A DNA stretch of 64,000 nucleotides from an uncultured virus (IMG/VR IMGVR_UViG_3300025120_000038) (lineage: Duplodnaviria > Heunggongvirae > Uroviricota > Caudoviricetes), in IMG/VR virus record IMGVR_UViG_3300025120_000038; one strand, written 5' to 3'. The first letter of the stretch is position 1. Each line of letters starts with the position of its first letter. The notes below the pieces were generated by a model. It was not told where the DNA came from, searched no databases, and worked only from the letters and a program-made list of their open reading frames with translations. The translations under genes were made by a program, and so were the position numbers. This document shows positions 27,871-61,662 of this stretch, piece after piece.

Positions 27871-29583
27871 ATGAATATAACAGAGATCAACGGTTTTACT
27901 ATTGATCAGTTCAATCAGTATGATTTATCAGTGGGAAAAAAAGAGGGTGTTTGCCCTCTTTGCTCTCACGATAGAAAACCTGAGAATCGTAAAGCTAAAT
28001 GCGCTATGTACGATTGGGAACGTGGTCTCGGAACTTGTATGAATTGTGATGAAGTATTTCAATTACATACATTTAAACGCAAAGGTGGTGATGCACATAA
28101 AGTGTATACTAAACCTGAGTGGAAAAATATGGTATTATTAAGTGATAATGCTGTAAAATGGTTTGAGAGCAGAGGTATATCTCAAAAAACTTTAATAAAG
28201 GCTAAAATAACTGAGGGTCTTGAATGGATGCCTCAAGAAAGCAAAGAAGTAAATACTATTCAATTTAATTATTTCATTAATAATGAATTAATAAATATAA
28301 AATATAGAGATGGTAGAAAAAACTTTAAATTGGTTAAAGGTGCAGAAAAAGTATTCTATAATATTGATAGCACTGTGGGCCATGAGTATATTGTTATTGT
28401 GGAAGGTGAGATGGACGCTTTATCTTTTATGGATGCTAAGGTCGATTCTGTGGTCAGTGTTCCAAACGGAGCTACTCTTAATCGCCTTAACCTTGATTAC
28501 CTTGACAACTGCATTGAGTATTTTGATGACAAATCCAAAATTATACTCGCAGTCGATTCAGATGAAGCCGGTCAAAACCTTCAGCAAGAACTTATACGTA
28601 GATTTGGAGCGGAAATATGCTATACAATTGACTTTAAAGGCGCTAAGGATGCTAACGAGTATCTTAATAGTTATGGGCCTTCTATGCTCAAGCGTCTTGT
28701 TGATCAAGCTGTTCCTGTTCCTCTTGAAAACGTAGTAACATTAAATGATATAGATGAAGAATTACAAGAATTTATTCATGAAGGGTTTAAGCCTGGTTAT
28801 CAAGTCGGTCTTAATAACTTTGATGACATCTTTAGTACTTACACAGGGCAGTTTATTACAGTTACAGGAGTACCTAGTAGTGGTAAGTCTGATTTTGTGG
28901 ATAGAATGGTTGTGGGGTACCAATTAAAATATGGATGGAAAACAGCATTTGCATCGCCGGAAAATAAACCTACATTTTTACATGCACATAAACTAATAAG
29001 AAAATTAGGTGATTGGATGCCAAGTAAAGTTGATATTGGCACAGAAAAATGGAATCAAGTAACTGAATTAGTTAATGATAATTTTTATTTTATTGAAAAT
29101 GAAAGATATGATTTAGATTCAGTCCTTTTAAAAGGTGCGGAACTTGTAAAAAGAAAAGGCATAAAATGTTTAGTTATAGATCCATATAATAAAGTAAAAA
29201 TGCATGGAGCTGAAAAAATGAGCATACCAGATGCAACAATGGAGTACTTAACGAGAATTGAAGCGTTTGCTAAAAAATATGATGTTCTTGTTATAGTTGT
29301 TGCACATCCCACTAAAATGTATAAAAAAGAAAATGGAGAAATTGAAGAGCCTAATATGTATAGTATTAAAGGAGGTGGTGAATGGTATGATGCTAGCTAT
29401 CACGGTTTACTTGTTCATCGCGATTATACTAATAAAACAGTTAAGGTTAAAGTTCTTAAAGTTAAATTTCAAAATTTAGGTGAAAATCAAGCTGAAGCAC
29501 ATTTTAGATGGGATCATATAAGCGGTGATTATAAACCTATAGAAAACAATAACCAAAATAGTTTACCATGGGAAGTGGATTAA
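27871..29583 (+). CDS. T7 gp4/Twinkle-like primase-helicase
   Basis: CPLC..C..C Zn ribbon, TOPRIM VEGEMD and DSDEAG, Walker A GVPSSGKS, VIDPYN, VAHP. Confidence 0.93.
   Translation: MNITEINGFTIDQFNQYDLSVGKKEGVCPLCSHDRKPENRKAKCAMYDWERGLGTCMNCDEVFQLHTFKRKGGDAHKVYTKPEWKNMVLLSDNAVKWFESRGISQKTLIKAKITEGLEWMPQESKEVNTIQFNYFINNELINIKYRDGRKNFKLVKGAEKVFYNIDSTVGHEYIVIVEGEMDALSFMDAKVDSVVSVPNGATLNRLNLDYLDNCIEYFDDKSKIILAVDSDEAGQNLQQELIRRFGAEICYTIDFKGAKDANEYLNSYGPSMLKRLVDQAVPVPLENVVTLNDIDEELQEFIHEGFKPGYQVGLNNFDDIFSTYTGQFITVTGVPSSGKSDFVDRMVVGYQLKYGWKTAFASPENKPTFLHAHKLIRKLGDWMPSKVDIGTEKWNQVTELVNDNFYFIENERYDLDSVLLKGAELVKRKGIKCLVIDPYNKVKMHGAEKMSIPDATMEYLTRIEAFAKKYDVLVIVVAHPTKMYKKENGEIEEPNMYSIKGGGEWYDASYHGLLVHRDYTNKTVKVKVLKVKFQNLGENQAEAHFRWDHISGDYKPIENNNQNSLPWEVD
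28310..28735 (+). CDS. Candidate overprinted (+1 frame) multi-pass membrane protein inside the primase
   Basis: 141 codons open; host gene switches from TTA to CTT/CTC Leu codons here. Confidence 0.55.
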   Translation: MVEKTLNWLKVQKKYSIILIALWAMSILLLWKVRWTLYLLWMLRSILWSVFQTELLLIALTLITLTTALSILMTNPKLYSQSIQMKPVKTFSKNLYVDLERKYAIQLTLKALRMLTSILIVMGLLCSSVLLIKLFLFLLKT

Positions 29584-29903
29584 GAAAAAAAAGTAATCAT
29601 AAAGGATTAAATTATGCTTATAATAATTGTTATACTCCTCATAAAGATTATATAAAATGGGATACATATTGTATTAATAATAATATAAGAATTAGCCCTG
29701 TACCTACAGAAAGAGGGCCTAGACCGGAAGAATGGAGAATTGAAGTTCGTTTAGGTCCTTATAAAAAGGGTGAAAAAGGTTATTTATCGCCAAACGTTTA
29801 TGATTGTCATTCAATACTTATTGAATTAGAAAGAATGAAAAGATATTATTATGATAAAAATACGTTACAAAATAATAATAAAAGTGATAATAATATAGGA
29901 TGA
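29568..29903 (+). CDS. Hypothetical protein
   Basis: 111 aa ORF in operon. Confidence 0.65.
   Translation: MGSGLRKKSNHKGLNYAYNNCYTPHKDYIKWDTYCINNNIRISPVPTERGPRPEEWRIEVRLGPYKKGEKGYLSPNVYDCHSILIELERMKRYYYDKNTLQNNNKSDNNIG
29862..29893 (+). promoter_or_regulatory. Class-1 promoter copy 7 (upstream of the TS gene)
   Basis: ACGTTACAA-aataataataaaa-GTGATAATAA. Confidence 0.8.
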
Positions 29904-30721
29904 TAAATATAGAAGAAGAATATTTAGGATTAATGGCTGGCATATTATATGGCGGTAAACCTAAAAAAGATAGAACTAAAACAGGAACTTTAAGTGTATT
30001 TGGAAGAATGATTCATCACGATATGGCTTTAGGGTTTCCTTTATTAACAACTAAAAAAATATTTTTTAATCATGCGCTTACGGAATTATTATGGATTAGC
30101 AATGGTCGTACCGATATTAATTATCTCCGTGATAACGGGGTTACTTACTGGGATGGCGACTACAAAAGATCTGGGAGAAAAGATGGAACACTGGGCCCTA
30201 TATATGGCCATCAGTGGCGTTATTTTGGTGGTGTCGATCAGTTGGCTGACCTTGTCAGAGGCATTAAAGCTGAACCGACCTCACGTAGATTACTGGTTAT
30301 GGCGTGGAATCCTGCTGATAATGGGGATATGGTACTTCCTCCATGCCACTATGGTTTTCAAGTATATTGTAATGCTACACACGTAGATTTAATGTGGCAA
30401 CAAAGATCAGCAGATGTATTTTTAGGTTTACCTTATGATATAGCTATGTACGGATTACTTTTAGAGCTATTAGCTAAAGGTGCGGGATTAAAACCCGGCA
30501 AACTTATTGGTAGCTTAGGTGATTGTCATTTATATAATAATCATTTAGACCAAGCTAAAACACAATTATCAAGAAATATGAAATCTTTGCCTAAATTAGA
30601 ATTAAATAAAGGTATAAAAATAATAAATGATGAATTAATTATTCCTGAACATAAAGATATTAAGATTAATAATTATTATTCACACCCCTCAATAAAAGCT
30701 GAATTATCAGTAGGAACTTAA
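29900..30721 (+). CDS. thyA: Thymidylate synthase-family enzyme with Asn-to-Asp specificity change (possible dCMP-modifying enzyme)
   Basis: DRTKTGT, FPLLTTKK, GPIYG, SRR, LPPCH, QRSAD, CHLY; GLPYDI in place of GLPFNI. Confidence 0.85.
   Translation: MINIEEEYLGLMAGILYGGKPKKDRTKTGTLSVFGRMIHHDMALGFPLLTTKKIFFNHALTELLWISNGRTDINYLRDNGVTYWDGDYKRSGRKDGTLGPIYGHQWRYFGGVDQLADLVRGIKAEPTSRRLLVMAWNPADNGDMVLPPCHYGFQVYCNATHVDLMWQQRSADVFLGLPYDIAMYGLLLELLAKGAGLKPGKLIGSLGDCHLYNNHLDQAKTQLSRNMKSLPKLELNKGIKIINDELIIPEHKDIKINNYYSHPSIKAELSVGT
30072..30386 (+). CDS. Candidate overprinted (+1 frame) 3-TM membrane protein inside the TS gene
   Basis: 104 codons open, three hydrophobic segments with polar loops, GC-shifted codons. 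Confidence 0.55.
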   Translation: MRLRNYYGLAMVVPILIISVITGLLTGMATTKDLGEKMEHWALYMAISGVILVVSISWLTLSEALKLNRPHVDYWLWRGILLIMGIWYFLHATMVFKYIVMLHT

Positions 30722-30731
30722 ATTATATAAT

Positions 30732-31508
30732 ATGGCAATAAAATTAAAAACAGGTAAATATAAAATATATCATATACCCGGCCAAAAAGTTGGCTGTACT
30801 ACTAATATAGAAAAACGCGTTATAAAAGAACAAGGCTTTAAAAGAAGTGAATTTGAAATTATATTTGAAACAGATAATATTAAAGAAGCGGCTGAAGCTG
30901 AAAGAACATTACAAAAAGATTTGGGGTATAAGGTAGATATAAAACCTTATGATAAATTATTTGTATCAGCAGACGGCGTTAAAGTAAATGTTACTGATCA
31001 AACAACAACATTTCCTGTACCTTATAACGAAATAAATGCATTGCATATAGCTGATTTACAATGGGAAACACAATATGGTAAAGTAACTATTGATGCTAGT
31101 GATAAAATAGATTGGATATTAGATAATATAAAAAAGTCAATGTTCTCTAAAGATAGAAGCTATATATATAATAAAGCTCTTTATGAAGCAGGACCATTTC
31201 AAAAACATATGAATACAATAACATTTAAGGATATACGCCAGTGGGCAGAAACGAGAGGTATCACCGCAAATGGTGATAGTAAAACACAGTATGTTAAACT
31301 AATGGAAGAGGCGGGCGAATTAGCTGAAGCATTATTAAAAAAAGATAAAAAAGAAATTAAAGATGCTATAGGCGATATGGTTGTAGTATTAACTAATTTA
31401 TCTTCTTTAGAAGGATTTAAAATAGAAGATTGTATAGATCATGCATACAATGAAATAGTAAACAGAACAGGTAAAATGATTAATGGAACATTTGTAAAAG
31501 ATGAGTAA
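30732..31508 (+). CDS. mazG: GIY-YIG-like N-terminus fused to a MazG-like NTP pyrophosphohydrolase
   Basis: KIYHI...KVGCTTNIEKR; C-terminal KLMEEAGELAEA...DAIGD...AYNEI. Confidence 0.75.
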   Translation: MAIKLKTGKYKIYHIPGQKVGCTTNIEKRVIKEQGFKRSEFEIIFETDNIKEAAEAERTLQKDLGYKVDIKPYDKLFVSADGVKVNVTDQTTTFPVPYNEINALHIADLQWETQYGKVTIDASDKIDWILDNIKKSMFSKDRSYIYNKALYEAGPFQKHMNTITFKDIRQWAETRGITANGDSKTQYVKLMEEAGELAEALLKKDKKEIKDAIGDMVVVLTNLSSLEGFKIEDCIDHAYNEIVNRTGKMINGTFVKDE

Positions 31509-32389: not shown

Positions 32390-32442
32390 ACATTACAGAG
32401 AAAGAATAGCATTTCATATTAAAATGCTTAAATATTATTTAG

Positions 32443-32737: not shown

Positions 32738-32943
32738 AAGAATCAAAATTAGTTCAAATGCAAAATAAGCTAGAAGCTTTAGGTGCTGCTATGAACAGAG
32801 TAATACAAGAGCTAGCAAATTTAAAAGATTTATCAATTGGTACCATGGAATTAGTTAAAAACTTTTCTGATTATGAAAGTGCTCTTGAAAAATTAAAAAA
32901 AGATGTTACAGAAAACCAAGAAAAAACACAAAAAGAAAAATAA
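32734..32943 (+). CDS. Coiled-coil hypothetical protein
   Basis: 69 aa, abuts nrdB. Confidence 0.65.
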   Translation: MKESKLVQMQNKLEALGAAMNRVIQELANLKDLSIGTMELVKNFSDYESALEKLKKDVTENQEKTQKEK

Positions 32944-33912
32944 ATGGGATTATTTACAGAAAGAATACCTTACAAACCATTTGAATATCCGGAATATTAT
33001 ACAGATGGTTGGCTTAAACAAGCTCAAGCTTTTTGGCTTCATACGGAGATTCCGATGTCAGGTGATGTTAAGGACTGGAACGAGAAACTCACCGACGGGG
33101 AAAGGAACCTCGTTGGAAATATACTTTTGGGATTTGCGCAAACTGAATGTGCGGTATCTGATTATTGGACGCAAAAGGTGGTTTCATGGTTTCCTAAACA
33201 TGAGATAAGACAAATGGCCATGATTTTTGGGTCACAAGAAACTATACATGCAGTAGCATATTCTTATTTAAATGAAACATTAGGTCTTGAAAATTTTGAA
33301 GCATTTTTACAAGACGAGGCAACAATGAAACGCTTCGATAATTTAATTAGTTATGACGGAAATAACCATACCGGAATTGCAAGAAGCCTTGCGATCTTTA
33401 GCGCCTTTGCTGAAGGCGTTAGCCTTTATTCTGCTTTTGCTGTGTTATATAGTTTTCAACTCAGAAACCTATTAAAAGGTATAGGGCAACAAATGAAATG
33501 GAGTGTAAGAGATGAATCTTTACATTCTAAAATGGGATGTCAGCTTTTTAGGCATATGTGCCAAGAAGATCCTTCTTTACTTAAAGAATGTGAAAAAGAC
33601 ATTTTGTATTCAGCGCAAGCTATGCTTGATGCAGAAGAAAAATATATTGATAAAATGTTTGAGAAAGGCGACATAGCTAATTTAAAAGCATATGATCTAA
33701 AACAATTTATAAGAAAACGTTTAAATGAAAAAATTGCAGAACTCGGGTACAGGGACCACGGGGAATACTTTAAATATGATAGAGACGGAGCAGAACAGCT
33801 TGATTGGTTTTACCATCTTACTGGTGGTCATACTCATACCGATTTTTTTGCTATACGGCCAACGGATTACTCAAAAGCTAACGAAGGCGAAGATTTCAAA
33901 GATATTTGGTAA
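32944..33912 (+). CDS. nrdB: Class I ribonucleotide reductase beta subunit
   Basis: YKPFEYP, ETIHAVAY, AEGVSL, RDESLH, DFF...Y tail. Confidence 0.95.
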   Translation: MGLFTERIPYKPFEYPEYYTDGWLKQAQAFWLHTEIPMSGDVKDWNEKLTDGERNLVGNILLGFAQTECAVSDYWTQKVVSWFPKHEIRQMAMIFGSQETIHAVAYSYLNETLGLENFEAFLQDEATMKRFDNLISYDGNNHTGIARSLAIFSAFAEGVSLYSAFAVLYSFQLRNLLKGIGQQMKWSVRDESLHSKMGCQLFRHMCQEDPSLLKECEKDILYSAQAMLDAEEKYIDKMFEKGDIANLKAYDLKQFIRKRLNEKIAELGYRDHGEYFKYDRDGAEQLDWFYHLTGGHTHTDFFAIRPTDYSKANEGEDFKDIW

Positions 33913-34166
33913 TGAAAAAATTTCTTGAAAGCTTAGTAAAAAGTAGAAAATTATCAGCTAAAGAAAGACTAGCTAATAGGCTAGGATATTTTGGAACAGC
34001 TTTTATAATGATTAGCCCTTATTTATTAGCATATGGCAATGTAGGGGCTATCACATATATTATAGGTGGTATAGTGTGCACGCCACAGGTATGGATTGCT
34101 AAACAATGGAATTTAGTAGCGGTTAATGTTAATGTAACTATAGGTTATTTAATTTATTTATTATGA
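33906..34166 (+). CDS. Small 3-TM membrane protein
   Basis: Three hydrophobic segments; lies between nrdB and nrdA. Confidence 0.65.
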   Translation: MVMKKFLESLVKSRKLSAKERLANRLGYFGTAFIMISPYLLAYGNVGAITYIIGGIVCTPQVWIAKQWNLVAVNVNVTIGYLIYLL

Positions 34167-35911
34167 GTTGGAATACAAAATGGGTAAGAGGTAAAGATTA
34201 TCCTTATTGGGGAGATACAGAAGTGTATAAAAAAACTATATCAGGAGGATATCTTGTTAATGGAGAATCACCTAAAGATGCTTATAGAAGAGTTGCTAAA
34301 ACTGTTGCAAAAAGATTATACAAACCAGAATTAGAAAATAGGTTTTTTGATTATATATGGAAAGGATGGTTATGTTTAGCTTCACCTGTTTTATCAAATA
34401 CTGGAACAGATAGAGGATTACCTATTAGTTGTTTTGGTATTGATGTAGCAGATAGTATAATGGATATAGGTAATAAAAATTTAGAAATGATGTTACTCGC
34501 AAAGCACGGCGGCGGAGTAGGCATTGGTATAAACATGATAAGACCCGCCGGCGCTAATATAACAGGTAATGGAACATCAGATGGAGTTGTCCCTTTTTGC
34601 AAAATCTATGACTCAACTATACTCGCAACCAATCAAGGGTCAGTACGTAGAGGGGCTGCATCCGTTAATATTAATATTGAACACCCTGACTTCGATGAAT
34701 GGCTGGAAATCAGAGAGCCTAAAGGCGACGTCAACAGGCAATCTCTTAACTTACATCAGTGTGCTGTCGTTGGCGATAAGTTTATGCGAAAACTCGAAGC
34801 TGGATCTACAGATGCACGGGATAAATGGGGAAGATTACTCCAAAAACGAAAAGCTACTGGAGAGCCATACATCCTCTTTAAAGGAAATACAAACAAAGCT
34901 AATCCAGATGCTTACAAGTCGAACAGTTTAAAAGTTCACATGACTAACATCTGTAGTGAAATAACACTTCATACAGATGAATCGCATAGCTTTGTATGTT
35001 GTTTATCTAGTTTAAATTTAGGTAAATATAATGAATGGAAGAATACTAATTTAGTATATGAGGCCACATGGTTTTTAGACGGTGTAATGGAAGAATTTAT
35101 ACAACGTGCTAAAAATATGAAAGGATTTGACAACGCGGTTAGATCTGCTCAAAAAGGTAGAGCTATAGGGCTAGGCGTTTTAGGATGGCATAGTTTATTA
35201 CAAAAAAGCGGAATTGCTTTTGAGGGGCTTTTAGCTCAGTTTAAAACAAGAGAAATATTTTCTAAGATTAAAATAGAGACTGAGAGAGCTTCTAGGGCAC
35301 TTGCGGAGACATATGGTGAACCTTTATGGTGTGTTAATACTGGAATGCGAAATACGCATTTAAGAGCGGTAGCGCCCACCGTATCAAATAGTAAATTAGC
35401 AGGTAATTTATCACCTGGGATAGAGCCTTGGGCAGCAAACGTGTTTACTGATCAATCGGCTAAAGGAACTTTTATACGTAAAAATGAAGAACTTAAAAAA
35501 GTATTTAAAAAAATTGGTATTGATACTAAGGAAATTTGGAATAAAATTTTGGAGGATGGTGGATCCGTTCAAGGAATTAAACAACTTGACGGATGGCATT
35601 ACGATCACGGAGGACGACTTACCCAAGATGGGGAAGGGGAATCAGTGAAAAATGTATTTAAAACATTTAAAGAAATAAACCAATTAGAATTAGTAGGACA
35701 AGCAGGAATAAGACAAGATTATATTGATCAATCAGTATCACTTAATTTAGCTTTTCCCGCTGAGGCAGAGCCAAGATGGATTAATAAAGTTCATTTTGAA
35801 GCTTGGAAACGTGGTATAAAAACTTTATACTATATGAGAACGGAATCAGTTTTAAGAGGTGATATAGCGGCCAACGCTATGGACCCAAACTGTATATCCT
35901 GTGATGGATAA
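34163..35911 (+). CDS. nrdA: Class I ribonucleotide reductase alpha subunit (no ATP cone)
   Basis: ISCF, GGGVG, TNICSEI, APTVSNS, KTLYY, C-terminal CISC. Confidence 0.95.
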   Translation: MSWNTKWVRGKDYPYWGDTEVYKKTISGGYLVNGESPKDAYRRVAKTVAKRLYKPELENRFFDYIWKGWLCLASPVLSNTGTDRGLPISCFGIDVADSIMDIGNKNLEMMLLAKHGGGVGIGINMIRPAGANITGNGTSDGVVPFCKIYDSTILATNQGSVRRGAASVNINIEHPDFDEWLEIREPKGDVNRQSLNLHQCAVVGDKFMRKLEAGSTDARDKWGRLLQKRKATGEPYILFKGNTNKANPDAYKSNSLKVHMTNICSEITLHTDESHSFVCCLSSLNLGKYNEWKNTNLVYEATWFLDGVMEEFIQRAKNMKGFDNAVRSAQKGRAIGLGVLGWHSLLQKSGIAFEGLLAQFKTREIFSKIKIETERASRALAETYGEPLWCVNTGMRNTHLRAVAPTVSNSKLAGNLSPGIEPWAANVFTDQSAKGTFIRKNEELKKVFKKIGIDTKEIWNKILEDGGSVQGIKQLDGWHYDHGGRLTQDGEGESVKNVFKTFKEINQLELVGQAGIRQDYIDQSVSLNLAFPAEAEPRWINKVHFEAWKRGIKTLYYMRTESVLRGDIAANAMDPNCISCDG

Positions 35912-36428: not shown

Positions 36429-39400
36429 TTAAGCATTTTTTCGTTTATAATTGTGTGCAAATTTTTCCCATGGCAATGAATGATCACCTTCTGTTTTCCA
36501 TTTGCCACCATGTGCTATTTGGCCGTTTTTACGTTCAAATTTTTTCTTACCATAATATACATAGTTATCGTCATAATCTAATTTACCAGACTTCATTTCT
36601 TGTTGATGTCTTTTTTCATGCTCAATAACTTCTTTTCTTTTAACGGGCGATAAACCTTCCGCAACTTCAATAGAGCCGTCTCGGTTAGCTTTACCTAAAA
36701 CTCCTTTTTCTAAATCTTTAATAGGGCTTTTCTTTTTATTTTCTTTTTCTTCTTCTTTTTTACGTTTTTTAACAGCCCTACTAATAGATTTGTTTAAAGC
36801 TTTAAATGAATCACTTAAAGCTTTTGATTCATCTTGTTTTCTGGCTTGTATACCTAACTCCCATTCACCCCATCCCATCATTAAAGCAACTCTTTGCCAT
36901 ATTTCATTTCTACTATCAGTAGATTCAACAATATGATTAAGTTTTCTTAATACTCTATCTGCTGGAATATTACTAAAAGCTGAAATTACTTTTAATGCAG
37001 CATCAAGAGCGGGATTATTTAAAGCAAGCCCTCTAGTTTTAACCTTTTCAAGTTCTTGTTTATATGTAAACGTTCTACCCGCAGATTGTACTTTTTGAAA
37101 TTTAGATTGAAGAGGCGGAGATAACGAAAACATTTTATCTGCTACCGCTGTATAATCACTTCTAGATGGCTTATCAAATTGCCTTTTAGCTTCTAAAGCC
37201 ATATTTTTAAACATAGCTATAAAAGCACCCATTACACCAGATCCCCTTAAAAACATATCCGCAGTACTATTTACAATATTAAATCTAGTTTTAGATTTTT
37301 GATCGTCCCTAAATTCCTTTTCTTTAGGCCCTAACTCTTCTAAGTCATCATCACTTGTAAACAATATTCCAAACATTGCTTGTTGTAAAGCTGTAAATAT
37401 TATATTTTGAGCAACACCATAATAAACTATTTTAGAAACATTTGTTTTCCAATCACCACGACCGTTTGCAAGATCCTGCATGGCTCTTTTTGTTAATCTA
37501 GTATATTGTATAGGTGTATTTGCAAAAGCTAATATAACACGCCCTAATGGACTTGCTTGTTCCATACTAATTCTAGATGGATCAGAAGATTGTTGAGATT
37601 CATTGGCTAAAGTTCTAAAGTCATTATATGCTTGTTGTTCAGCTTCAGTTTTACTTAATCCTTTTTTTTGTAATGCTTTTATTCTGTTTCTATAGAATGT
37701 AGAACCACCAGAAGCAATAGCAAAGCTATCAGCAAATTGAGTAGGTAAAAATCCTTTTTTAAGTAAAAATGAAATACCAGCTCTTACCTTGTTAGTAGAA
37801 GCTGCCGCTGCTGCTGCAATTTCGTCTGCATTTACATCAGTTTTTAAACCAGATCTTCTTTGTTTTAAAAAGTCTGAATTAAATAATGTTGCAAAATCAT
37901 TCCAATATTGTTTTTGATTTGCAAAAGCTTTTGCTGCTTTAGCTGGGTTATTATCTGACCAATTTATAAAGTTTACAGAAGATATGGTTTGCAATAAAGC
38001 AGAACGCATATTAAAAAACATAATAGTACCTACTGAATCATTTAGCCAGTTTAACCAATTATTGGTTTGTCTATTAGCTCCACTAGGCCTGTTACGACCT
38101 GTTTTCATTCTGTATAAAGTATCTTTTAAAGCTTCTACATATCTATTACCATACTGAGCTTTTAATTTATTAATGTTATCAGGTGTAAAAATAGCATCCA
38201 CAGCTTCAAAATAAGGCTCTAAATACTGATTTCTTGTTTCATTATTTACAAAATTAACTAAATCTGTAGTTATTGTACCTGAAACCCAGTTTTGTGTGGG
38301 TGCAGGATAACCTAAAGGATTTAATTTTTGTAATTGATCAGCGAATGTTTTTAAAGTAGGATTACTATTAACATGATTAACTAAAGCACTTACATCTTTA
38401 CCTGCTAAATCTTTACTGTCTGGCAATATATTTTGCTCATTCCATAAATAAACTCTTACTGCATCCTGATTGCTAAAACCTCTTACGGCTTCTTTATTTA
38501 AATCAGCAGGGGTGTTTTCAATTTTATTTTGAATTTGTTTCCATTCAAGCATGGCGGCTTGTTTTGCTGTTTCAAAAGCTGCCATACCATCGTTGTAAGG
38601 AGTCATTAAATTATCCTTCCACCATTGTAAATCTTTATTGCCTTGCTCCCCTTTGCTTAATGTAGGATATATTAAACCTAATAAATCTTCTGCAGAATAA
38701 GGTACAAAAGCTTGAAAGCCTTTACTGTCACCCAATTTTTGAGCTCTAGTATTAGAATATATTGCCTCAGCTTTAACACCTTTAGTTCTTTCAATCATTT
38801 TATTGAATTCTTCACTAAGAGTGCCTTTAAAAACATTTTGCTGATTACCTTCTAATAATACTTTTTGGTCACTTAAATTTAATTGATCTTTTATAGCATC
38901 ATATCTAGCGGTCCAGCTATCATTAAATAAATTCCAACCAGAAGGCATAGTAAATTTAGTTAAATCTATACCCTTTAATAAAGCATCAGAAATACCTATT
39001 TGTTTATAATTTGCTTTTAAAGCAGTTATTACTTCATCAAAAGTTTTACCTTTAAATCTAGAAGGGTTAAACAAAGCATCAGATATAACCTGAGCAGCAT
39101 ATTTAACAGGTACTGCATGTTCCCAAGTAATTGGGCCTTTAGAAATATCATAAGAATATATTTGAGCACCATTACCTAAAAATCCACTTCTTTCTGCTAT
39201 AGCGTTGCCTAATATATAATTTATAGTAGTATCTAAATCTGAAATATGCCCTTTTTTACCTTTTAAAGCATTATTTTCTTCAGTTGCTTTCTTAAAAAGA
39301 TTTAATACATCATCAAATACTTTATTCCCTTTATAGTTAAAATCAGCAACTATTTTTTTAATATTTTTTTGATCAATATTTTCAGTTGTATTACCTATAG

Positions 39401-45298: not shown

Positions 45299-45302
45299 AT
45301 TG

Positions 45303-47159: not shown

Positions 47160-47180
47160 ATAATATAATTAAATTTAATT

Positions 47181-47420: not shown

Positions 47421-47421
47421 A

Positions 47422-50400
47422 TTATGCTTGAGTTATTGTTATTGTTTTAGGGGCTAAAGGTGAAGAACCTCCTTGAATTCTAGTGTTAAGGCAAACAATA
47501 TTAGCGTCTACTGTTCTTAAAGATCCTGTACCGTTAGCATCAGCACTAATTGTAAAACTATCTCCTGGTTCTATAACAGCTGTTCCGTTAGCACCATTAA
47601 ATTTAATCCAATTAGTTCCAAAGCCCCCATTATCAGCAGGGGTTACGGAAATTTGAACGTTCCATGTATTTGAAATTGTAATTGCTGTACCAGCTGTAAT
47701 TAAATTTGCTGTTGTAGGTATACTTCCTAATGTTGCTGTTGCTGGTGTATAAGTTCCTAAAGTAGCTGTAGCCACTGTGTCTACTGTTAAGTTAGGTAAT
47801 TGCACGCTAAAAGTTAAAATTCCATTATTACTACTTAAAGCCGGAGTAATTGTTACACCTCCTACATTATAAGATACAGTTTGTGATGATGTAGTTAATA
47901 CCTGCGTATCAGTACAAGTATACACAATTGTAGCTAATCTTAAATTAGCATTATCAAAAGGCGAAATGTAATATGCTACTCCCGCAGATGTACCCGCAGG
48001 CGTATTTAAACTTCCCGGATCAGCACCAAATGTAATAGGGGTCCATATTAATGTTGGTTTTAAAGTTGCCGCCCCGGTAACTGTTATAGTTCCTGCGGTT
48101 GCTGTTGCCGGAACTGTAATTGGAATTTCATATTCAATATTATCTCCATTTTGAACTGCAACTGTTGTTCCAACATTTGTACTGGCAGGCATACCACTGG
48201 TATTAATTACAATATTATTATTGTCAATATAATAATTAGAAAAAGCCGATGCTACAAACTCCACTTTATTACCACCTACTGTATTAAATATTTGAGAAGC
48301 CGGAGTTATTGCTGAATTAGAAATAGTATCTATTGTGTTTACAGTTAACAAAGCAACAGTAAAAGCTAAATCAGCTCCGGTACCACTAATATCTAATGTT
48401 TGTATAGAATTAGAAGAACCAACTACATGGGACACTTGAAAAACCAATTGCCCATCTGTAACTGCTACAGGTGATGTTATATTTAAATTACTTCCAGCTG
48501 CTTGCGTTAAAATAATTTCAGGTGGAGAAGGAATAGGGTCAGTAAATTTAAATTGTGAATTTAATGGAGAAACAAATATGGCCCAAAAAATTTGATCTCC
48601 TTGTTTATTTATGCTCGTATTAGCCCCACTAAATATAGAATTAGCTGCTGAACCTGATAATTGTAATGAAGTATTAAAAGTATCTGCTGTTGTAGGTATA
48701 GTTCCAATATTACCAATATCTGTTTCTATATATTCTAACTCCCACCCCTCAGTACCTTCATAAGCTAAAGTGTTAAATTGTTTTACTAAAGATGGTGCGT
48801 CATTAAAAATAGGTATTACGTAAGATTCTTGAGTCGTAGAATTATAAAAATTGTTTCTAGTAACATTAGGACTATGATGCTGCCACAAGCTTCCTCCACT
48901 AAATGTATAATAAGTATTATTTAATGATAAACCTCCTTCTTGTTTAAACCCTCTAAATGAGGTCCATCCGCCAGATCTATCATCAAAACATATTGTTAGA
49001 TATCCTTGTGAGGCAGTAGCCGCATTTGTGTCACTATTTCCATCAAAACCAGAGCCTATTAAAGTTAATTCATATAGTCTACTATATTCGTCGTAGGATC
49101 CTATAATTTGTGTAGAAGCTTTTAATGCATCTCTAAAAAAATCACCACAGCCAATTGTTGATATTTCTTGCAATTGACCTTGTACTAATCTTAGTACAAC
49201 ACCCCTATTACTATCCGTAAAATATTGTGAAAAGCCATAAGTTGCCCAAGATTGTGGGTTTTTAGCTATACCAAATTGACCGGCTAATGGTGCTATTGTA
49301 CCTAAAAATTGTGTATTACTAGTAACTGGAACAGCTCCACCTTCTGCAGAATATATAAAATCTTTATCAATTGGTGATCTAGAAACTTTATCTTCTTGAA
49401 ATATATTTATAGCAGTATCATCTGTAAATAACTTTTGTACAGAACCATCTTGAGGGTCTAAAGATATAGTTAAACCACCTTCCGATTCATTAAATTGATT
49501 TATATAATTTATACCAGTTCTTGAATTTAAAAATCCACTAGAATGTATTAATGTATTACCTCTTCTTTCTTCAGTAAAATTTTCTTGTACCACATAAGCT
49601 CTTACACCTACATCAAAAAATGGTTGATTAAAGCCTGCTTTAATTCTATTAATTTCTATATGATAACCTGCTGTAAAAGTAAGTAATATACAATTAAAAA
49701 ATTCTATATCAATTGCCGTTGCGGTTAGCTCAGATACTAATCCTCCAGTAGATGTTTCAAAAAATATATCTAATTCAGAACTAACAGGTTCTGTTTCATA
49801 TACAGCTAAACCTGAACTAACTGCAGCTCCGCTATTATTAATTGTGGTAACTAAAGCATCTCCTGATGGATTTGCAATAGACTGTACAGACGTTAATGCA
49901 CCTGCAGTTGGCGAATAAACATTACTACCATCTACATACTTAGGATAAACAGATACGTTACAAGGAGATATTGTTGCAGAAGTACTTGGTGGTATTGCTG
50001 CTGTTTGATCTCTAGGAATTTTATTTATACTATCTCCTAATCTTTCAATGTTATTAGCACTTGTAATTACAGATATCCAATTATAATATTCTTGTTCTCT
50101 TTGCTTTACAACAACTCTATACGAATAAGCCCACTCAGGTATTTGCGTTAGATCAGCAAAAGCAATTCTTAATGCATTAAAAGCTGAAGTTGAACTAGCG
50201 TCTCCTGTGTTTGGTTCTACAAATACGGTATCTACTCCTGAGCTCGATAATATTACAGGAGATTGTCTTCCAAATTTATCTGCTAAAACAATACCAACTT
50301 GATATGTACGTCTTGATTTTACAGATTGATTTTCTAAATTGGATGATAATCTAGCAGATGTTTCTCCTGTTCTTGAAACAGTAAAAGCTATTTGTGGAAT

Positions 50401-51429
50401 ATCAAAATTTTGTAAAAAATTACCATAAACTAACCTACCTCCAGCTACATCTTGAGCTTTAGCTTTTAATGGAACCGCATCATATACTCTTGTTAATTGA
50501 TCAGGTGGTAATGTTCTAAAAGGGTCAGTTGATGAATAAGTAAAATTAACAAAAGGCTCAGTAGTAACCTCAGAATCATTAACCACATACAATGTGCCCG
50601 AAATAGTATCTTTATAAATTAGCTCCACATTTTTAATACCATAACCTGTTGGAGTTGGTATTTGTAATTGTACTTGATTGATTGCATTAACAAATGTTTC
50701 TATTTCTCCAAAATTACCAATTGAAGTACTAATAGTATCAGGTTCATTTATTCTAGAAAACAATATTGGGCTAAAAGGTGCTAAAGTACTATATTCATTA
50801 TCTTCAAATTGCCATCTATATGAAAATCTTATTAGCTTGTCCTGCATAAAAGTTGAAGATATGCTTGATTCTTTTGTTGCAGCAACTAAAGTTGGTGCTT
50901 CATATGGAGCAAATTTACATACTGATATTAAATTATCAATATTAGAAGCAGAGGTATAATATGACACATTATTTCTAGCCGTAACTACATTAATTTTTCT
51001 TGGGTAATTTCTATTATCTGTCCAAAACAATAAATCATCTACAATATTAATTCCAGTAATAGGATAATTTTGATGTAAATTTAATTGTTGAGAAACTATT
51101 AATGCTGTAGTTTGTTTAGTTTTTTGATCGTACTCAAAAAGCCCATGCTGCCCGGAATTTATTTCATTATAAGTACTATTATTAGTAACAAAAAAATATA
51201 TTTTTTCAGTTCTACTATCACTAACCACTCCAATGCTTTTAGCATTAGCAATATTACAATTTGCTACTAATTCATTACCTAATAAATTTTCAATAGAACC
51301 TACATCAGACGCTTCTGATTGCCCAATATTAACATTGAATGCCTCTCGGTAATCACCCGCAGGTATTATTCTATCATCTAAATCACGGTTCATTTTACCG
51401 CCATTAAATATTCTTTTTATTTCTGGCAT
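47422..51429 (-). CDS. Tail stabilisation/nozzle protein with a C-terminal Ig-like extension
   Basis: GKMNRDLDDRI, LLFWTDNRNYPRKIN, RFSYRW, YGN, YFTD, GWTSF; last ~430 aa Thr/Ala-rich. Confidence 0.75.
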   Translation of the reverse strand: MPEIKRIFNGGKMNRDLDDRIIPAGDYREAFNVNIGQSEASDVGSIENLLGNELVANCNIANAKSIGVVSDSRTEKIYFFVTNNSTYNEINSGQHGLFEYDQKTKQTTALIVSQQLNLHQNYPITGINIVDDLLFWTDNRNYPRKINVVTARNNVSYYTSASNIDNLISVCKFAPYEAPTLVAATKESSISSTFMQDKLIRFSYRWQFEDNEYSTLAPFSPILFSRINEPDTISTSIGNFGEIETFVNAINQVQLQIPTPTGYGIKNVELIYKDTISGTLYVVNDSEVTTEPFVNFTYSSTDPFRTLPPDQLTRVYDAVPLKAKAQDVAGGRLVYGNFLQNFDIPQIAFTVSRTGETSARLSSNLENQSVKSRRTYQVGIVLADKFGRQSPVILSSSGVDTVFVEPNTGDASSTSAFNALRIAFADLTQIPEWAYSYRVVVKQREQEYYNWISVITSANNIERLGDSINKIPRDQTAAIPPSTSATISPCNVSVYPKYVDGSNVYSPTAGALTSVQSIANPSGDALVTTINNSGAAVSSGLAVYETEPVSSELDIFFETSTGGLVSELTATAIDIEFFNCILLTFTAGYHIEINRIKAGFNQPFFDVGVRAYVVQENFTEERRGNTLIHSSGFLNSRTGINYINQFNESEGGLTISLDPQDGSVQKLFTDDTAINIFQEDKVSRSPIDKDFIYSAEGGAVPVTSNTQFLGTIAPLAGQFGIAKNPQSWATYGFSQYFTDSNRGVVLRLVQGQLQEISTIGCGDFFRDALKASTQIIGSYDEYSRLYELTLIGSGFDGNSDTNAATASQGYLTICFDDRSGGWTSFRGFKQEGGLSLNNTYYTFSGGSLWQHHSPNVTRNNFYNSTTQESYVIPIFNDAPSLVKQFNTLAYEGTEGWELEYIETDIGNIGTIPTTADTFNTSLQLSGSAANSIFSGANTSINKQGDQIFWAIFVSPLNSQFKFTDPIPSPPEIILTQAAGSNLNITSPVAVTDGQLVFQVSHVVGSSNSIQTLDISGTGADLAFTVALLTVNTIDTISNSAITPASQIFNTVGGNKVEFVASAFSNYYIDNNNIVINTSGMPASTNVGTTVAVQNGDNIEYEIPITVPATATAGTITVTGAATLKPTLIWTPITFGADPGSLNTPAGTSAGVAYYISPFDNANLRLATIVYTCTDTQVLTTSSQTVSYNVGGVTITPALSSNNGILTFSVQLPNLTVDTVATATLGTYTPATATLGSIPTTANLITAGTAITISNTWNVQISVTPADNGGFGTNWIKFNGANGTAVIEPGDSFTISADANGTGSLRTVDANIVCLNTRIQGGSSPLAPKTITITQA

Positions 51430-55626: not shown

Positions 55627-56949
55627 TTATTTATTCCATTTAATGCGCAACTTGTCGGAAGAATTCCCAGATACTACTCTAATCGTATCACCTGAATTTG
55701 TAGTTACAGATGAACCATCAGCTCTTGGATCCATATTAATATTTTTAGCTTTCTTTGCGGATTGTTTTATAGCGTCGGCACGGCCTTGCTCATAAAAGTG
55801 ATTCGCAATTTTATCTGCATTCTGTGCAGTAAATAAAGCTTTATGATATTTATTTAAATCTGTTAAGTTACCTTTGTTATCAGAGTATTGATTTAAAAAA
55901 TTATTAATATCTGATTGAAACTCTTTTGTTTTTTTAGGATTTTCTATTTTAAATCTATATTTGTTTTCTCCAACCTTAAAATCAAAACCTTTGAAATCAT
56001 TGTTAAAAACATCGTTAGTTTTATTTAAAAAATTTTCCTTTAATTTAGTTTCTTCTTTCGATAATTGCTGTTGATTATTATAATACTCTAAAGCTTTTGC
56101 GTATTTTGGATCAATATCTTTTTCTTTTCTTAACTTAAGATCAGTATAATATTGGTCTTTTACTTTTTTAAAAGTTTTTTGAGCATTAAATAATTCTTCT
56201 TTAAAAGCTAATTGCTTAGCTTTAATATCGGACGGATCGTCCAATTCTTTATCGTAAGCAAAGTTTTTATCCATTAAAAAAGTAATATCTTCTTTGTCTA
56301 GATGAGGTTTAGTAAATTCATAATATTCTTTTAATAAAGTAATATTATCAATTTTGTCTAAGTCTCTATTAAGTTTTGCATAGTCTTCTACAGTTCCCCC
56401 TGTGTCTTCTATAAACTTAATTAATTTACCTACGTCTTCAGGTAGCTCTTGTGTTTTTGCTTCCTGTAATATTTTTTCAGGTTCCGGTGCGGGCTCGGCA
56501 CTTTTAGTGCTTGGTTCCACTCCCACCTTGTTAGTTGTATCTTCTTCATCATTTACTAATTCTAAAGGAGATTCAGTGGTTTCTTTATTTTCTTCTAAAG
56601 TTATTTCTTGCTTAACTTCTTCAGCGTTTTCGGGGGTTTCCCGTACTTCTGATCCCACGCTTGACAATCCCACTTCGGATCGTTCATCGCGTAACACTTC
56701 CTCCTTTGTTTCTGGCTCTTGAACGGCATCTGTTTTTTCTTGTTTAAGTTCTTCTGTTTTTTGTTCTTTAACAGGGGGTTTGTCTAAATTAACTTTATAG
56801 ACTCCATCTTCTTGGAGTCCATACTCTTTAGCAACCTCGCCTTTTTCAACTGCCTGTTCTAAAACTGCAGCTTCTTTTTCTTGAGGTGATTTAGGAGTTT
56901 CAGTATCAACTGATCTTACTTCCACTTTTTCTTCAACTTGGTTTTCCAT
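55627..56949 (-). CDS. Capsid scaffolding protein (putative)
   Basis: Acidic N-half, helical C-half, directly upstream of the MCP. Confidence 0.7.
   Translation of the reverse strand: MENQVEEKVEVRSVDTETPKSPQEKEAAVLEQAVEKGEVAKEYGLQEDGVYKVNLDKPPVKEQKTEELKQEKTDAVQEPETKEEVLRDERSEVGLSSVGSEVRETPENAEEVKQEITLEENKETTESPLELVNDEEDTTNKVGVEPSTKSAEPAPEPEKILQEAKTQELPEDVGKLIKFIEDTGGTVEDYAKLNRDLDKIDNITLLKEYYEFTKPHLDKEDITFLMDKNFAYDKELDDPSDIKAKQLAFKEELFNAQKTFKKVKDQYYTDLKLRKEKDIDPKYAKALEYYNNQQQLSKEETKLKENFLNKTNDVFNNDFKGFDFKVGENKYRFKIENPKKTKEFQSDINNFLNQYSDNKGNLTDLNKYHKALFTAQNADKIANHFYEQGRADAIKQSAKKAKNINMDPRADGSSVTTNSGDTIRVVSGNSSDKLRIKWNK
56430..56552 (-). CDS. Nested +1-frame small basic protein in the scaffold gene
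   Basis: MMKKIQLTRWEWNQALKVPSPHRNLKKYYRKQKHKSYLKT; coincides with a GC-rich patch. Confidence 0.65.
   Translation of the reverse strand: MMKKIQLTRWEWNQALKVPSPHRNLKKYYRKQKHKSYLKT
56601..56729 (-). CDS. Nested +1-frame MPFKS-type small basic protein in the scaffold gene
   Basis: MPFKSQKQRRKCYAMNDPKWDCQAWDQKYGKPPKTLKKLSKK; coincides with a GC-rich patch. Confidence 0.7.
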   Translation of the reverse strand: MPFKSQKQRRKCYAMNDPKWDCQAWDQKYGKPPKTLKKLSKK

Positions 56950-56980
56950 AATTTTATATAATATAATAGTTGTTTAATAT

Positions 56981-59425: not shown

Positions 59426-59427
59426 AT

Positions 59428-61662
59428 TTATTTTATTATCTCACTTCTTGATCCTTCGTTTCTATATTTTGATAGTTGAAAAGGAACTTTTGTAACTGTT
59501 TTTTCCGCTCTAGGACGGTATAAATGTTTTCGACAAGCCATTATAGCTAGGCCGCTGCTTATTGAAGCATCATGGGCTGTTCTACGAGATATATCAAAAC
59601 GTGCCCAATCTTCAAGGGTTCTTTGGAAAAACATGTTTCCATTGTTTTCACCAATTTTACCCACATATTCTTCAATATAAGATTCAATAGCAGAGGCATG
59701 GGCTTGCTTAATGTCTTCTGAAGAGTTAGGTATACCTCCTAATTCTAATTCTGTTTTAGATAAGTTACCAACTAATTTATCAGGTCTATTCATAGAATAA
59801 CCTCTATACCCTCTTCTTTTAAAATGATATAGTAATCTTGGTTTGTTATTTTCCGCTAATAAAGGCATTCCATAAAATATACAAGCCATTAATACATCTT
59901 CAAAAAATATTTCAGCTGTTTGTGGCCTTGCTATATATTCTAAAAAAAACTTACTATTTGGTACATCACTAACCATTGAAAATGTAGTTAACCCGTGTAA
60001 AGAACCATTTGATCCTCTACCACCTACTGTACCTGATATATCGTAAGGATCACAGCCAAATGCACCCAACCCGTTATTAGCCGGATATTTTAATGTGTTT
60101 TTTATAACAATACTATTTTGCATAAGTGTTGGAGGAATCCACGATATTCTAAATCTACCATTAGCATTAGGTGTCCATATAACTTTTGTATCTTTAATGC
60201 CGTTTGCCCATCCAAAAGAGCCTTTTGATATATGCCCTTTCATTACCATTTCTTCATTAAAATCTATTTGCTCATAAATTTTAGTTAAGTTAAATAATGA
60301 ATTTAAAGTTTCATCTCTGAAAGCGTGTTTTTCAGATCTTGGAAATTGTCTATAATATTCATTTAAAGCATCAGAATCTTTTTTTAATCCTTCAACTTCA
60401 TTTTCCCAGTGTTCAATGACCCCCGTATAGATGAGTTCACCATCAATTCCCTCAGCCGGTTTTGGTGGTGTATCGAATACAGGGTACCCATACTTATCGA
60501 TAAATCCTTCGAAGCCCCATTCCATAGGAAGGAACAAAGCATATAATCCACTTGTAGTCTGGCCATTGCGATTTCTATTTTCGACATTTGAATTATTATA
60601 TAATTTTTTAAAGTTATCTCCTCCTTTTGCTAATGCATTAGAAGTAGATCCCATCATACATTTGCCTACTATTTTTGAACCGAGCCTGAGACACGTTTTT
60701 GTGACCCTCCAGTTGTTGAGGATGTTGTCGGGCCTTTCCCATTTGCCCGATTCATCATGGACGAGGAGTTGTAACTTTTCCCCATCATATGAATTGTCCC
60801 CGGTATTCTTCCAGTCGATTGTTGTATCGAGCCCCTTTGCCATTCCTTCATCTTCCGTTTGTGTTTCTCGAATGGAATTTCTGGTAAGTCTTCTTGAGGG
60901 TATCTTATAGGAGAGCTCGGTTTTGGGGCGCTCCATACCGTCTTGAATTGGCTTGAAGAAGAATGGGTAGTTGATGGAGATTGGTACCACCTTGTCTGTA
61001 AACATCTTCTTCGCATCTGCTCCAGTCTTTGATAATATCCCAAACCTAGAGTCTTTTGAAGTTGTAGCCTGGTTGACGCACTCGGATGATGCCATAAAAC
61101 TAAATCCAGACCTCCTGTTTTTAAGGTAGCACATTCCATAAGACCTGGAATCTGCCTTGCAAGCCTCCCAGAAGTAGTAAAATATTCTATTTGCTTGTCT
61201 AAAGTCGGGTGACCCCACGTCGATCTTAGTCCAGTTGAGGTATATATAGTGTGATCCTGTAATGTAACACGGGGTACCGTTGCACATGAACCAGTAACCA
61301 TCATTACGATAATTAAATTCATCGTCAATGTATTGGTAATATTCCTCTTTATTTTTTTCTGGATGCTTAGTGAAATCATATATGCTTTTTATTTTGTTTA
61401 GTGAATTAGGCTTTAATCTTTTTTTAAAATATTGATTTTCTTTTTTAAGGTCTTGACCTTCAATTATTTGAGGAATTTTAGGTAAACCTACCTTGAGACC
61501 TTGAATTTCATATATTTCTCCTAATGTACCATCTTTACTTATAATAACACAATCTAATTCTTTATTGTAACCATATTTAAATTTTTTATGCTTATTAAAG
61601 TTTTTAACTGATCTATCATTAAGATGCTCATCGTATATATGATATAAATTTTGTTTATACAT
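59428..61662 (-). CDS. terL: Terminase large subunit
   Basis: Walker A-like KNRRSGFS, Walker B LLVHDESGK, motif III GST, nuclease FGCDPY and ENN. Confidence 0.9.
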   Translation of the reverse strand: MYKQNLYHIYDEHLNDRSVKNFNKHKKFKYGYNKELDCVIISKDGTLGEIYEIQGLKVGLPKIPQIIEGQDLKKENQYFKKRLKPNSLNKIKSIYDFTKHPEKNKEEYYQYIDDEFNYRNDGYWFMCNGTPCYITGSHYIYLNWTKIDVGSPDFRQANRIFYYFWEACKADSRSYGMCYLKNRRSGFSFMASSECVNQATTSKDSRFGILSKTGADAKKMFTDKVVPISINYPFFFKPIQDGMERPKTELSYKIPSRRLTRNSIRETQTEDEGMAKGLDTTIDWKNTGDNSYDGEKLQLLVHDESGKWERPDNILNNWRVTKTCLRLGSKIVGKCMMGSTSNALAKGGDNFKKLYNNSNVENRNRNGQTTSGLYALFLPMEWGFEGFIDKYGYPVFDTPPKPAEGIDGELIYTGVIEHWENEVEGLKKDSDALNEYYRQFPRSEKHAFRDETLNSLFNLTKIYEQIDFNEEMVMKGHISKGSFGWANGIKDTKVIWTPNANGRFRISWIPPTLMQNSIVIKNTLKYPANNGLGAFGCDPYDISGTVGGRGSNGSLHGLTTFSMVSDVPNSKFFLEYIARPQTAEIFFEDVLMACIFYGMPLLAENNKPRLLYHFKRRGYRGYSMNRPDKLVGNLSKTELELGGIPNSSEDIKQAHASAIESYIEEYVGKIGENNGNMFFQRTLEDWARFDISRRTAHDASISSGLAIMACRKHLYRPRAEKTVTKVPFQLSKYRNEGSRSEIIK
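60669..61379 (-). CDS. Candidate overprinted (+1 frame) lipoprotein inside terL
   Basis: 236 codons open; KKIKR-hydrophobic-TGS/C lipobox; GC-shifted terL codons. Confidence 0.6.
   Translation of the reverse strand: MISLSIQKKIKRNITNTLTMNLIIVMMVTGSCATVPRVTLQDHTIYTSTGLRSTWGHPTLDKQIEYFTTSGRLARQIPGLMECATLKTGGLDLVLWHHPSASTRLQLQKTLGLGYYQRLEQMRRRCLQTRWYQSPSTTHSSSSQFKTVWSAPKPSSPIRYPQEDLPEIPFEKHKRKMKEWQRGSIQQSTGRIPGTIHMMGKSYNSSSMMNRANGKGPTTSSTTGGSQKRVSGSVQK

Follow-up and report, generated by a model that had tools for sequence, protein, structure and literature searches.

Do the essential genes of an uncultured marine phage carry a second set of genes in their +1 frame? The question arises in the virus record IMGVR_UViG_3300025120_000038 (Caudoviricetes), whose 64,000 nucleotides (nt) form the window analyzed here. 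An initial annotation of the window listed same-strand open reading frames (ORFs) in the +1 frame of genes for a primase-helicase, a thymidylate synthase (TS), both ribonucleotide reductase subunits (nrdB and nrdA), a scaffold protein and the large terminase (terL), and read them as a genome-wide strategy of embedding accessory genes in conserved ones. Every one of these ORFs was present at its coordinates. We found that seven +1 frames, lying in five of these genes, are held stop-free by selection, with fixed starts and ends, and the pattern of their conservation makes it probable that they are real, unannotated overprinted genes of an uncultured marine podovirus-like phage lineage.

Nested ORFs and their host genes

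The primase-helicase gene (570 amino acids (aa); 27871..29583, + strand; phrog_239 DNA primase/helicase, E 2e-81) holds two of the seven ORFs, primhel-A (141 aa; 28310..28735, +) and primhel-B (57 aa; 28754..28927, +); the latter begins six codons past the primhel-A stop cluster and had been missed in the initial annotation. TS-alt (104 aa; 30072..30386, +) lies in a ThyA-like gene of the thymidylate-synthase family (273 aa; 29900..30721, +; phrog_160, E 7e-98). In nrdB (ribonucleotide reductase small subunit; 32944..33912, +; phrog_86, E 6e-69), nrdB-C (67 aa; 33725..33928, +) spans the final 188 nt of the gene and extends 16 nt beyond its stop, while nrdA (large subunit; 34163..35911, +; phrog_84, E 1.5e-144) holds nrdA-alt (120 aa; 34569..34931, +). 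On the minus strand, terL (744 aa; 59428..61662; phrog_6681, E 1e-169) contains terL-A (236 aa; 60669..61379) and terL-B (67 aa from its ATG, ~78 codons from stop to stop; 60384..60587). Read-through joining the paired ORFs was considered and rejected, three to five separate stops lying between them.

For each of the 49 genes encoding 100 aa or more we compared the longest alternative-frame ORFs with those in 1000 within-gene synonymous shuffles, which preserve codon usage gene-wide and not locally. Only in four genes did the longest +1 ORF exceed all 1000 shuffles (P ≤ 0.001), namely primase-helicase (primhel-A, 141 aa vs. a shuffle mean of 49), the ThyA-like gene (TS-alt, 104 vs. 27), nrdA (nrdA-alt, 120 vs. 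43) and terL (terL-A, 236 vs. 60). The +1 frame of nrdB gave P = 0.004 and three additional genes gave P of 0.018–0.035; no P below 0.08 was obtained for the +2 frame among the 49 genes. The interval 36429-51429 had been proposed as an internal control without long nested same-strand ORFs, and we agree, the longest there being 49 aa in the +1 frame and 21 aa in the +2 frame. The host genes are indeed GC-richer within the nested intervals, as had been described: GC content at third codon positions (GC3) was 0.30–0.49 inside the five long ORFs vs. 0.14–0.25 elsewhere in each host gene, and terL-A coincides with a GC3 island (0.49 vs. 0.19).

Openness of the frames in diverged relatives

The closest phages in GenBank are those of Flavobacteriia (Flavobacterium, Tenacibaculum, Maribacter and Cellulophaga), and the hosts of the present lineage are probably marine Flavobacteriia as well. 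These GenBank phages are distant, reaching at most 66–73% nt identity over parts of terL and no more than 41% aa identity in primase-helicase, so that no annotated or experimental counterpart of the nested ORFs was available. Relatives were taken from IMG/VR: the best 80 for each of terL, nrdB and nrdA (at least 600 matches each), the best 80 of 204 for the ThyA-like gene, and 31 for primase-helicase. These are metagenomic contigs that are phylogenetically related to one another, spanning 64–91% host-protein identity in the conservation measurement; ten near-complete related genomes were used in addition for scanning all frames. Relatives were codon-aligned, +1 stops were counted in each interval, and the expected openness was derived from each relative's own synonymous shuffle, which keeps the test from being circular.

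Between 2.7 and 12.5 stops per relative were expected in the seven intervals. Nonetheless, primhel-A was open in all 21 relatives (77–87% aa identity) where 0.0 were expected to be open, primhel-B in 23 of 25 (0.8 expected), TS-alt in 51 of 80 (0.1), nrdB-C in 75 of 80 (1.5), nrdA-alt in 50 of 80 (0.0), terL-A in 31 of 77 (0.0; 37 had at most one stop) and terL-B in 49 of 78 (0.6). These seven frames are thus open in relatives far more often than expected. Pairwise distances at 4-fold degenerate sites inside the ORFs were 0.28–0.77, so the openness was not simply inherited, and most relatives encoded their own version of the alternative peptide (22 distinct among 22 for primase-helicase, 50 of 51 for nrdA and 42 of 52 for TS).

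Other listed ORFs fared differently. No conservation in relatives was seen for the 101-aa ORF at the start of nrdB (nrdB-N; 32903..33208, +; open in 6 of 80 vs. 0.2 expected, with 2–5 stops in relatives of 87% identity), the 54-aa ORF of nrdB (33512-33676, +; 5 of 80 vs. 3.5), the 54-aa ORF of nrdA (35484-35648, +; 2 of 55 vs. 0.2) or the third ORF of primase-helicase (60 aa; 29297-29479, +; 2 of 29 vs. 0.4), and for these the proposal of hidden genes is not supported; nrdB-N is likely a chance or very young ORF. Also not conserved were a 46-aa ORF in terL (open in 3 of 68) and a 64-aa ORF in a capsid gene (3 of 10). The status of a 46-aa ORF in primase-helicase (14 of 25 vs. 6.4) and of the 40-aa ORF in nrdB (33353-33475, +; 54 of 80 vs. 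8.0) is ambiguous, between conserved and chance. The scaffold ORFs (42 aa at 56601-56729 and 40 aa at 56430-56552) could be aligned in only two and four relatives, with 0.4–0.8 stops expected, and sit in a Glu/Lys-rich stretch that permits few +1 stops. Beyond the seven, the short ORFs of the list look like chance.

Frame-specific avoidance of stops

In 46 terL relatives (at least 73% identity), the sense +1 frame alone was stop-free over codons 93–310, the other four alternative frames retaining 0.2–5 stops per 31 codons. We extended the comparison to 31 conserved genes, amounting to 10,308 codons, and searched all five alternative frames for runs open in every ortholog, using as many as 10 related genomes. 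The three longest were 141 codons in primase-helicase, 130 in terL and 122 in nrdA, all in the sense +1 frame, followed in that frame by 78 in terL, 62 in nrdB and 57 in the scaffold gene. Beyond these the background maximum was 37 for sense +1 and 38, 43, 30 and 59 for the other frames. The genes that stood out were primase-helicase, nrdA, terL and the 3' end of nrdB, joined in part of the lineage by the ThyA-like gene, and most of the seven ORFs were present in most of the ten related genomes. With conserved frames in only 5 of the 31 testable genes, they constitute a cluster and not the genome-wide layer that had been envisaged.

The initial annotation had described a local change in codon choice inside the open frames, and this is borne out within the conserved intervals, where NTA codons, which create a +1 stop when A or G follows, are avoided before A or G and not before C or T. 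In relatives selected as stop-free (no such selection of rows was made for primase-helicase), NTA made up 0.39–0.54 of NTN codons before C or T and none before A or G, and NTG was in use before G (0.19) and absent before A. Since these rows had been picked for lacking stops, the columns that vary are the informative part. A was absent from all 76 columns (24, 13, 15 and 24 in the respective genes) in which NTN before a purine differed among relatives at its third base, vs. its presence in 40 of the 45 varying columns with NTN before a pyrimidine (9 of 10, 9 of 9, 8 of 9 and 14 of 17 per gene). Outside the ORFs, and in lineages lacking them, the two contexts behaved similarly. Avoidance that depends on the following base in this way rules out a plain composition shift.

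A separate 159-aa ORF runs antisense to terL (60431-60910, +) within its GC3-rich part. Antisense frames carry stops in relatives, with a shared open run of only 52 codons, and the ORF seems to have arisen as a side effect of the GC-rich patch.

Start codons and initiation context

Across the lineage the ORFs share their borders, with ATG and stop at identical codons. The ATG was kept at the same codon in 22 of 22 rows for primhel-A, 18 of 22 for primhel-B, 51 of 51 for nrdA-alt, 29 of 30 for terL-A, 43 of 52 for TS-alt and 71 of 81 for nrdB-C; among ORF-less lineages an ATG was present there in 23 of 30 for nrdA, 7 of 37 for terL and none of 29 for TS. Two of these ATGs arise through changes of the host residue, Phe94 to Tyr in terL and Ala-Ala to His-Ala in TS. 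The nested starts lie 3–9 codons past a +1 stop.

Start context was scored with a matrix derived from 67 annotated starts; among 926 internal out-of-frame ATGs, primhel-A ranked at the 100th percentile, terL-A at the 94th and TS-alt at the 92nd. We also folded 60-nt RNA windows around starts and compared them with those of 913 internal ATGs. Six of the seven nested starts fold at only −3.3 to 0.0 kcal/mol and in lack of structure rank at the 92nd percentile or higher (medians −7.5 for internal ATGs and −2.7 for true starts); the window of nrdA-alt folds at −4.8 kcal/mol (78th percentile). The conserved starts sit in A-rich islands with little RNA structure, which agrees with the suggestion that initiation independent of Shine-Dalgarno (SD) pairing may have eased the overprinting.

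Gain and loss of the nested frames

Relatives fall into two states, with either 0–1 stops in an interval or many: 3–10 in nrdA, up to 17 in terL, and 4–12 in TS, where 29 relatives are not open. ORF-less lineages thus accommodate 3–17 stops in the same interval at the same amino acid sequence. The states follow the trees, requiring 5 changes for nrdA, 2 for TS and 5 for terL, vs. ~22–24 for shuffled labels. For nrdA, 51 ORF-bearing rows and four nested ORF-less groups (11 rows) together make up a well-supported clade (62 rows), and the ORF occurs in none of the 19 outgroup rows; on this tree nrdA-alt has one gain and four losses. Sister lineages hold 7–11 stops after a loss. The nested ORF is absent from primase-helicase relatives at 32–40% identity, and the terL ORF from terL relatives at 62–69% identity (4–17 stops). 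The phylogenetic range of the seven ORFs is narrower than that of their host genes, i.e., the frames are younger than the host genes, and they are sometimes lost. Every one of the 9 related genomes that has an ortholog keeps the first 130 codons of terL-A open; in 4 of the 10 genomes the distal half has decayed.

Two sister nrdA sequences (L273 and L274), separated by ~0.09 aa substitutions per site, differ sharply in the interval: one has nrdA-alt and a GC3 of 0.30 there, the other eight stops and a GC3 of 0.09. Such a contrast points to recombination having replaced the allele, and less to gradual decay. In one related record (G005), terL (C1:29276-31508) is split near residue 273–278; its C-terminal piece belongs to a frame that has no stop over 662 codons and so extends backward through that of terL-A. 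An indel at the split would join the start of terL-A to the C-terminus of TerL, or the split may be an assembly error, the record being 63% complete by CheckV.

Constraint on the encoded residues

Uncorrected synonymous diversity inside relative to outside the ORF was 0.90/1.03 for nrdA, and the scan of this measure showed no dip except at the terL-A N-terminus (0.70–0.80) and in terL-B (0.61–0.70), both vs. ~1.0 in ORF-less lineages. We then computed the p-distance at 4-fold sites inside over that outside for successive divergence bins. For nrdA the ratio was 0.53, 0.56 and 0.80 in lineages with the ORF vs. 0.62, 1.04 and 0.96 without; for primase-helicase, which has no ORF-less control, it was 0.77 and 0.81; for TS it was 1.06, 1.13 and 0.99 with vs. 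1.98, 1.34 and 1.00 without; and for terL 0.97, 0.83 and 0.86 with vs. 0.55, 0.82 and 1.04 without. Both nrdA and primase-helicase show a modest reduction, terL a local one. Codons at one terL-A motif are also fixed: where the invariant G-S-C-A-T of its peptide is encoded, the host codons TTC and TGC are kept in 30 of 30 rows and AAC in 27 of 30, against the preference of the genome, and the host residue is Met125 in 30 of 30 vs. Tyr, Met or Ile elsewhere, which argues for local constraint on terL-A. As judged from these alignments, openness, ends, starts and composition are under selection, and most individual residues only loosely so.

Predicted products

The initial annotation expected mostly small membrane proteins and one lipoprotein. 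Transmembrane (TM) and lipoprotein calls were made by hydropathy and by a PROSITE-like lipobox regular expression. The expectation stands for four products that are predicted to be membrane-like: primhel-A (hydrophobic, three to four TM-like segments), primhel-B (hydrophobic), TS-alt (a median of three TM-like peaks vs. one in ORF-less lineages) and nrdB-C (one TM-like segment). It does not extend to nrdA-alt and terL-B, whose products would be hydrophilic. Hydropathy profiles are uniform among relatives and differ from those of the pseudo-peptides of ORF-less lineages.

The lipoprotein prediction concerns terL-A, which has a K-rich N-terminus, a hydrophobic stretch, the G-S-C-A-T motif (G-S-C being invariant in 30 of 30) and then a uniformly hydrophilic, basic chain rich in S, T, P and R. 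A lipobox-like pattern was present in 40 of 46 terL-A peptides vs. 2 of 95 six-frame ORFs of the window. Its product would thus be secreted, lipoprotein-like, basic and disordered, and the S/T/P-rich composition explains the rise of third-position C in this part of terL. An ESM Atlas search with terL-A gave a best score of 0.78, under the level at which we count matches.

Weighing the interpretation

If the seven ORFs are genes, ribosomes would start independently at internal AUGs within A-rich, unstructured islands of the host mRNA, a mode of initiation suited to hosts that can do without Shine-Dalgarno pairing. The products would be small, dispensable accessory proteins, membrane-bound or secreted, and loose constraint on their residues would be usual for young overprinted proteins. 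As a guess, they may act on the envelope, for instance by timing lysis, by disrupting the outer membrane or in superinfection exclusion. The holin gene (63192-63608, −; phrog_3427) and the endolysin gene (62693-63037, −; phrog_894) are upstream of terL on the same strand and share its late transcription direction, with terL-A ~1.3 kb further downstream.

Several observations weigh against this interpretation. The start of terL-B is not distinctive, with an ATG in 23 of 30 rows vs. 19 of 37 in ORF-less lineages, and the start context of nrdA-alt is ordinary (58th percentile). An OLGenie-like +1 dNN/dNS was 0.61–0.86 inside the ORFs vs. 0.58–1.15 in control regions and lineages; uncorrected synonymous diversity inside and outside was nearly equal for primase-helicase (0.99/1.0) and TS (1.02/0.99) and higher inside for terL (1.11/0.94), and at 4-fold sites terL has no clear constraint when set against its control. 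A +1 frame over T-ending codons yields hydrophobic products by default. The alternative peptides had no Pfam or PHROG match below E = 0.004 or above curated cut-offs. AlphaFold2 models built from alignments of relatives were helical for nrdA-alt (pLDDT 61.6, pTM 0.49) and consisted of helices only for primhel-A (pLDDT 72.5, pTM 0.29); such predictions are unconvincing and count as evidence neither way. No cultured relative was found among GenBank phages (best 41% aa in primase-helicase and 66% nt in terL), and the ORFs have been lost several times in the trees, implying that they are dispensable. The idea of overprinted genes from the initial annotation is thus upheld in part, in that seven ORFs are selected to be open, keep their starts and stops and shift the codon usage of their hosts, and is weakest at the level of residues, where the synonymous-constraint check gave a modest signal in nrdA and primase-helicase and local dips in terL while dNN/dNS did not differ from that of controls.

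That combination of strong selection against stops with weak residue constraint is what would be expected if the +1 frames were translated and their peptides immaterial, translation serving regulation or ribosome traffic, or the frames being entered by frameshifting to give fusions. The positions of some ends would suit this view, since primhel-A ends at the primase/helicase border (stops at codons 284–293, helicase match from ~272–290) and terL-A ends near codon 330. We nonetheless think it unlikely. The ATGs are conserved and lineage-specific, some having been made by amino acid changes of the host, and they lie just past a +1 stop in initiation-like contexts; the peptides have specific and uniform architectures (the lipobox, fixed synonymous codons, a composition shifted toward S/T/P/A); and 100–236 codons would be needlessly long for a coupling device. 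As for frameshift entry, the 21-nt consensus upstream of the starts has no long homopolymer or obvious slippery run, no formal search for shift sites having been made.

An origin of the open frames without any second reading, as by-products of local composition (GC3-rich patches acquired by recombination with phages of higher GC, biased gene conversion, or codon optimization in the conserved cores of enzymes), is still less probable. GC3 is raised in all of the intervals, third-position C rises in every context in terL, conserved genes are likely recombination substrates, the mixing of ORF-bearing and ORF-less states in the trees suggests allele exchange, and the 159-aa antisense ORF also occupies the GC-rich patch of terL. 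Yet stops are lost from the sense +1 frame only, the stop-free relatives keep NTA abundant before C or T and use NTG before G and not before A, and the borders, ATG and stop stay at identical codons while synonymous sites have largely turned over. In primase-helicase relatives, moreover, the GC3 contrast is small (0.24–0.34 vs. 0.18–0.29), and 21 of 21 are open all the same.

There is very little chance that these are random ORFs inherited by kin too similar to have gathered stops, which the relatedness and occasional near-identity of rows might suggest and which probably does account for nrdB-N, given the measured 4-fold distances and distinct peptides, the 76 varying columns without A, the 21–75 open relatives where 0.0–1.5 were expected, and the many stops of sister lineages after a loss. 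All of these alternatives match the data less well than overprinted genes do, and the divergence that was measured defeats inherited chance.

Comparison with known overprinted genes

In phage lambda, Rz1 lies in the +1 frame of Rz. Like Rz1 in Rz and T7 18.7 in 18.5, terL-A is nested on the same strand in the +1 frame, and it shares with Rz1-like o-spanins a lipoprotein-type signal and a late-region location near holin and endolysin genes. The homology of T7 18.5/18.7 to Rz/Rz1 is stated in the literature (PMC8365609). The host gene is an i-spanin gene in the Rz1 systems and the large terminase gene here, and the mature part of terL-A is ~200 aa, basic and S/T-rich, whereas Rz1 is a short Pro-rich peptide. 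A role of terL-A as a spanin was considered on the strength of its lipobox Cys and rejected, as an i-spanin partner was lacking: by eye, the 73-aa and 195-aa proteins encoded between the endolysin gene and terL have no N-terminal TM segment, and no neighbor combining such a segment with a coiled coil was observed near terL-A.

Two of the host-gene classes have a precedent in T7, whose genome paper reportedly places 19.2/19.3 inside gene 19 (large terminase) and 4.1/4.2 inside gene 4 (primase-helicase). The same two classes thus carry small out-of-frame ORFs in both cases; the resemblance is positional only, T7 belonging to an unrelated phage family, its ORFs being unproven, and those described here being longer (up to 236 aa). 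The seven ORFs would also resemble phiX174 E in D, phiX174 K, phiX174 B in A, and MS2 L as de novo alternative-frame genes of older genes. Overprinted products are often small membrane proteins, loosely constrained and of narrow phylogenetic range (PMC8227390, PMC6195259). The phiX174 and MS2 genomes are, however, limited in size (3–6 kb), whereas here seven such ORFs occur in a double-stranded DNA genome of ~60–70 kb with ample space for small genes, and unlike the small-phage cases all seven sit in enzyme or packaging genes. A full-text literature search, which did not reach supplements, returned general work on overlapping genes and a note on T7, and no description of nested ORFs in marine phage genes for terL, nrdA, thyA or primase.

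Because gene callers do not allow long overlaps on one strand, they miss these seven ORFs together with counterparts in hundreds of IMG/VR contigs. If translated, the ORFs would give a common group of ocean phages hidden membrane or secreted proteins, born de novo in terL, nrdA, nrdB and thyA, genes usually treated as single-purpose markers. The odd GC3 islands of these markers would then be explained; estimates of dS, codon usage and recombination drawn from them would need correction; and their gains and losses would form a natural series for the study of protein birth. More tentatively, and with considerable doubt, overprinting on core enzyme and packaging genes might be a regular source of envelope-directed accessory proteins in abundant marine double-stranded DNA phages, in which nesting would protect the new gene from deletion and aid its co-transfer, SD-independent initiation in Bacteroidota would ease its birth, and annotation would miss the whole class, including a terminase-embedded lipoprotein perhaps acting with holin and endolysin.

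Other features of the window

The window is an AT-rich phage segment (~32% GC) with two divergent gene blocks. PHROG matches on the plus strand include primase-helicase, ThyA-like, MazG, nrdB and nrdA; those on the minus strand include the major structural genes, portal, terL, endolysin and holin. The name 'thymidylate synthase' may not fit the ThyA-like host gene, whose protein reads ...LGLPYDIAMY... (PYDIA), with Asp at the position of the Asn of canonical ThyA (E. coli N177). A MazG-like pyrophosphatase gene (30732-31508, +) follows it.

Next to terL, in the 210-bp gap separating it from the gene for the 195-aa protein, a 92-aa ORF with a TTG start lies on the opposite strand (61651-61929, +). 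Translated matches of 63–71% were found in 4 of the 10 related genomes, and the ORF may mark either an intergenic element that is conserved or a short gene on the antisense strand.

A giant ORF of 2572 aa (36429-44147, −) had no PHROG match and no ortholog of at least 70% coverage in the ten related genomes. Its +1 frame has 241 stops vs. 253 in shuffles (P = 0.015) and no long alternative ORF. A GroEL-like chaperonin (524 aa; 13654-15482, −; phrog_5725, E 1.6e-125) has a GroES-like gene directly upstream, and there is a second GroES-like match at 61873-62460. At the divergent junction of the gene blocks (19000-22100), GC skew and AT skew both change sign, as might happen at an origin or in a region of early promoters, and the only tRNA in the window, a tRNA-Met, is located at 22002-22075.

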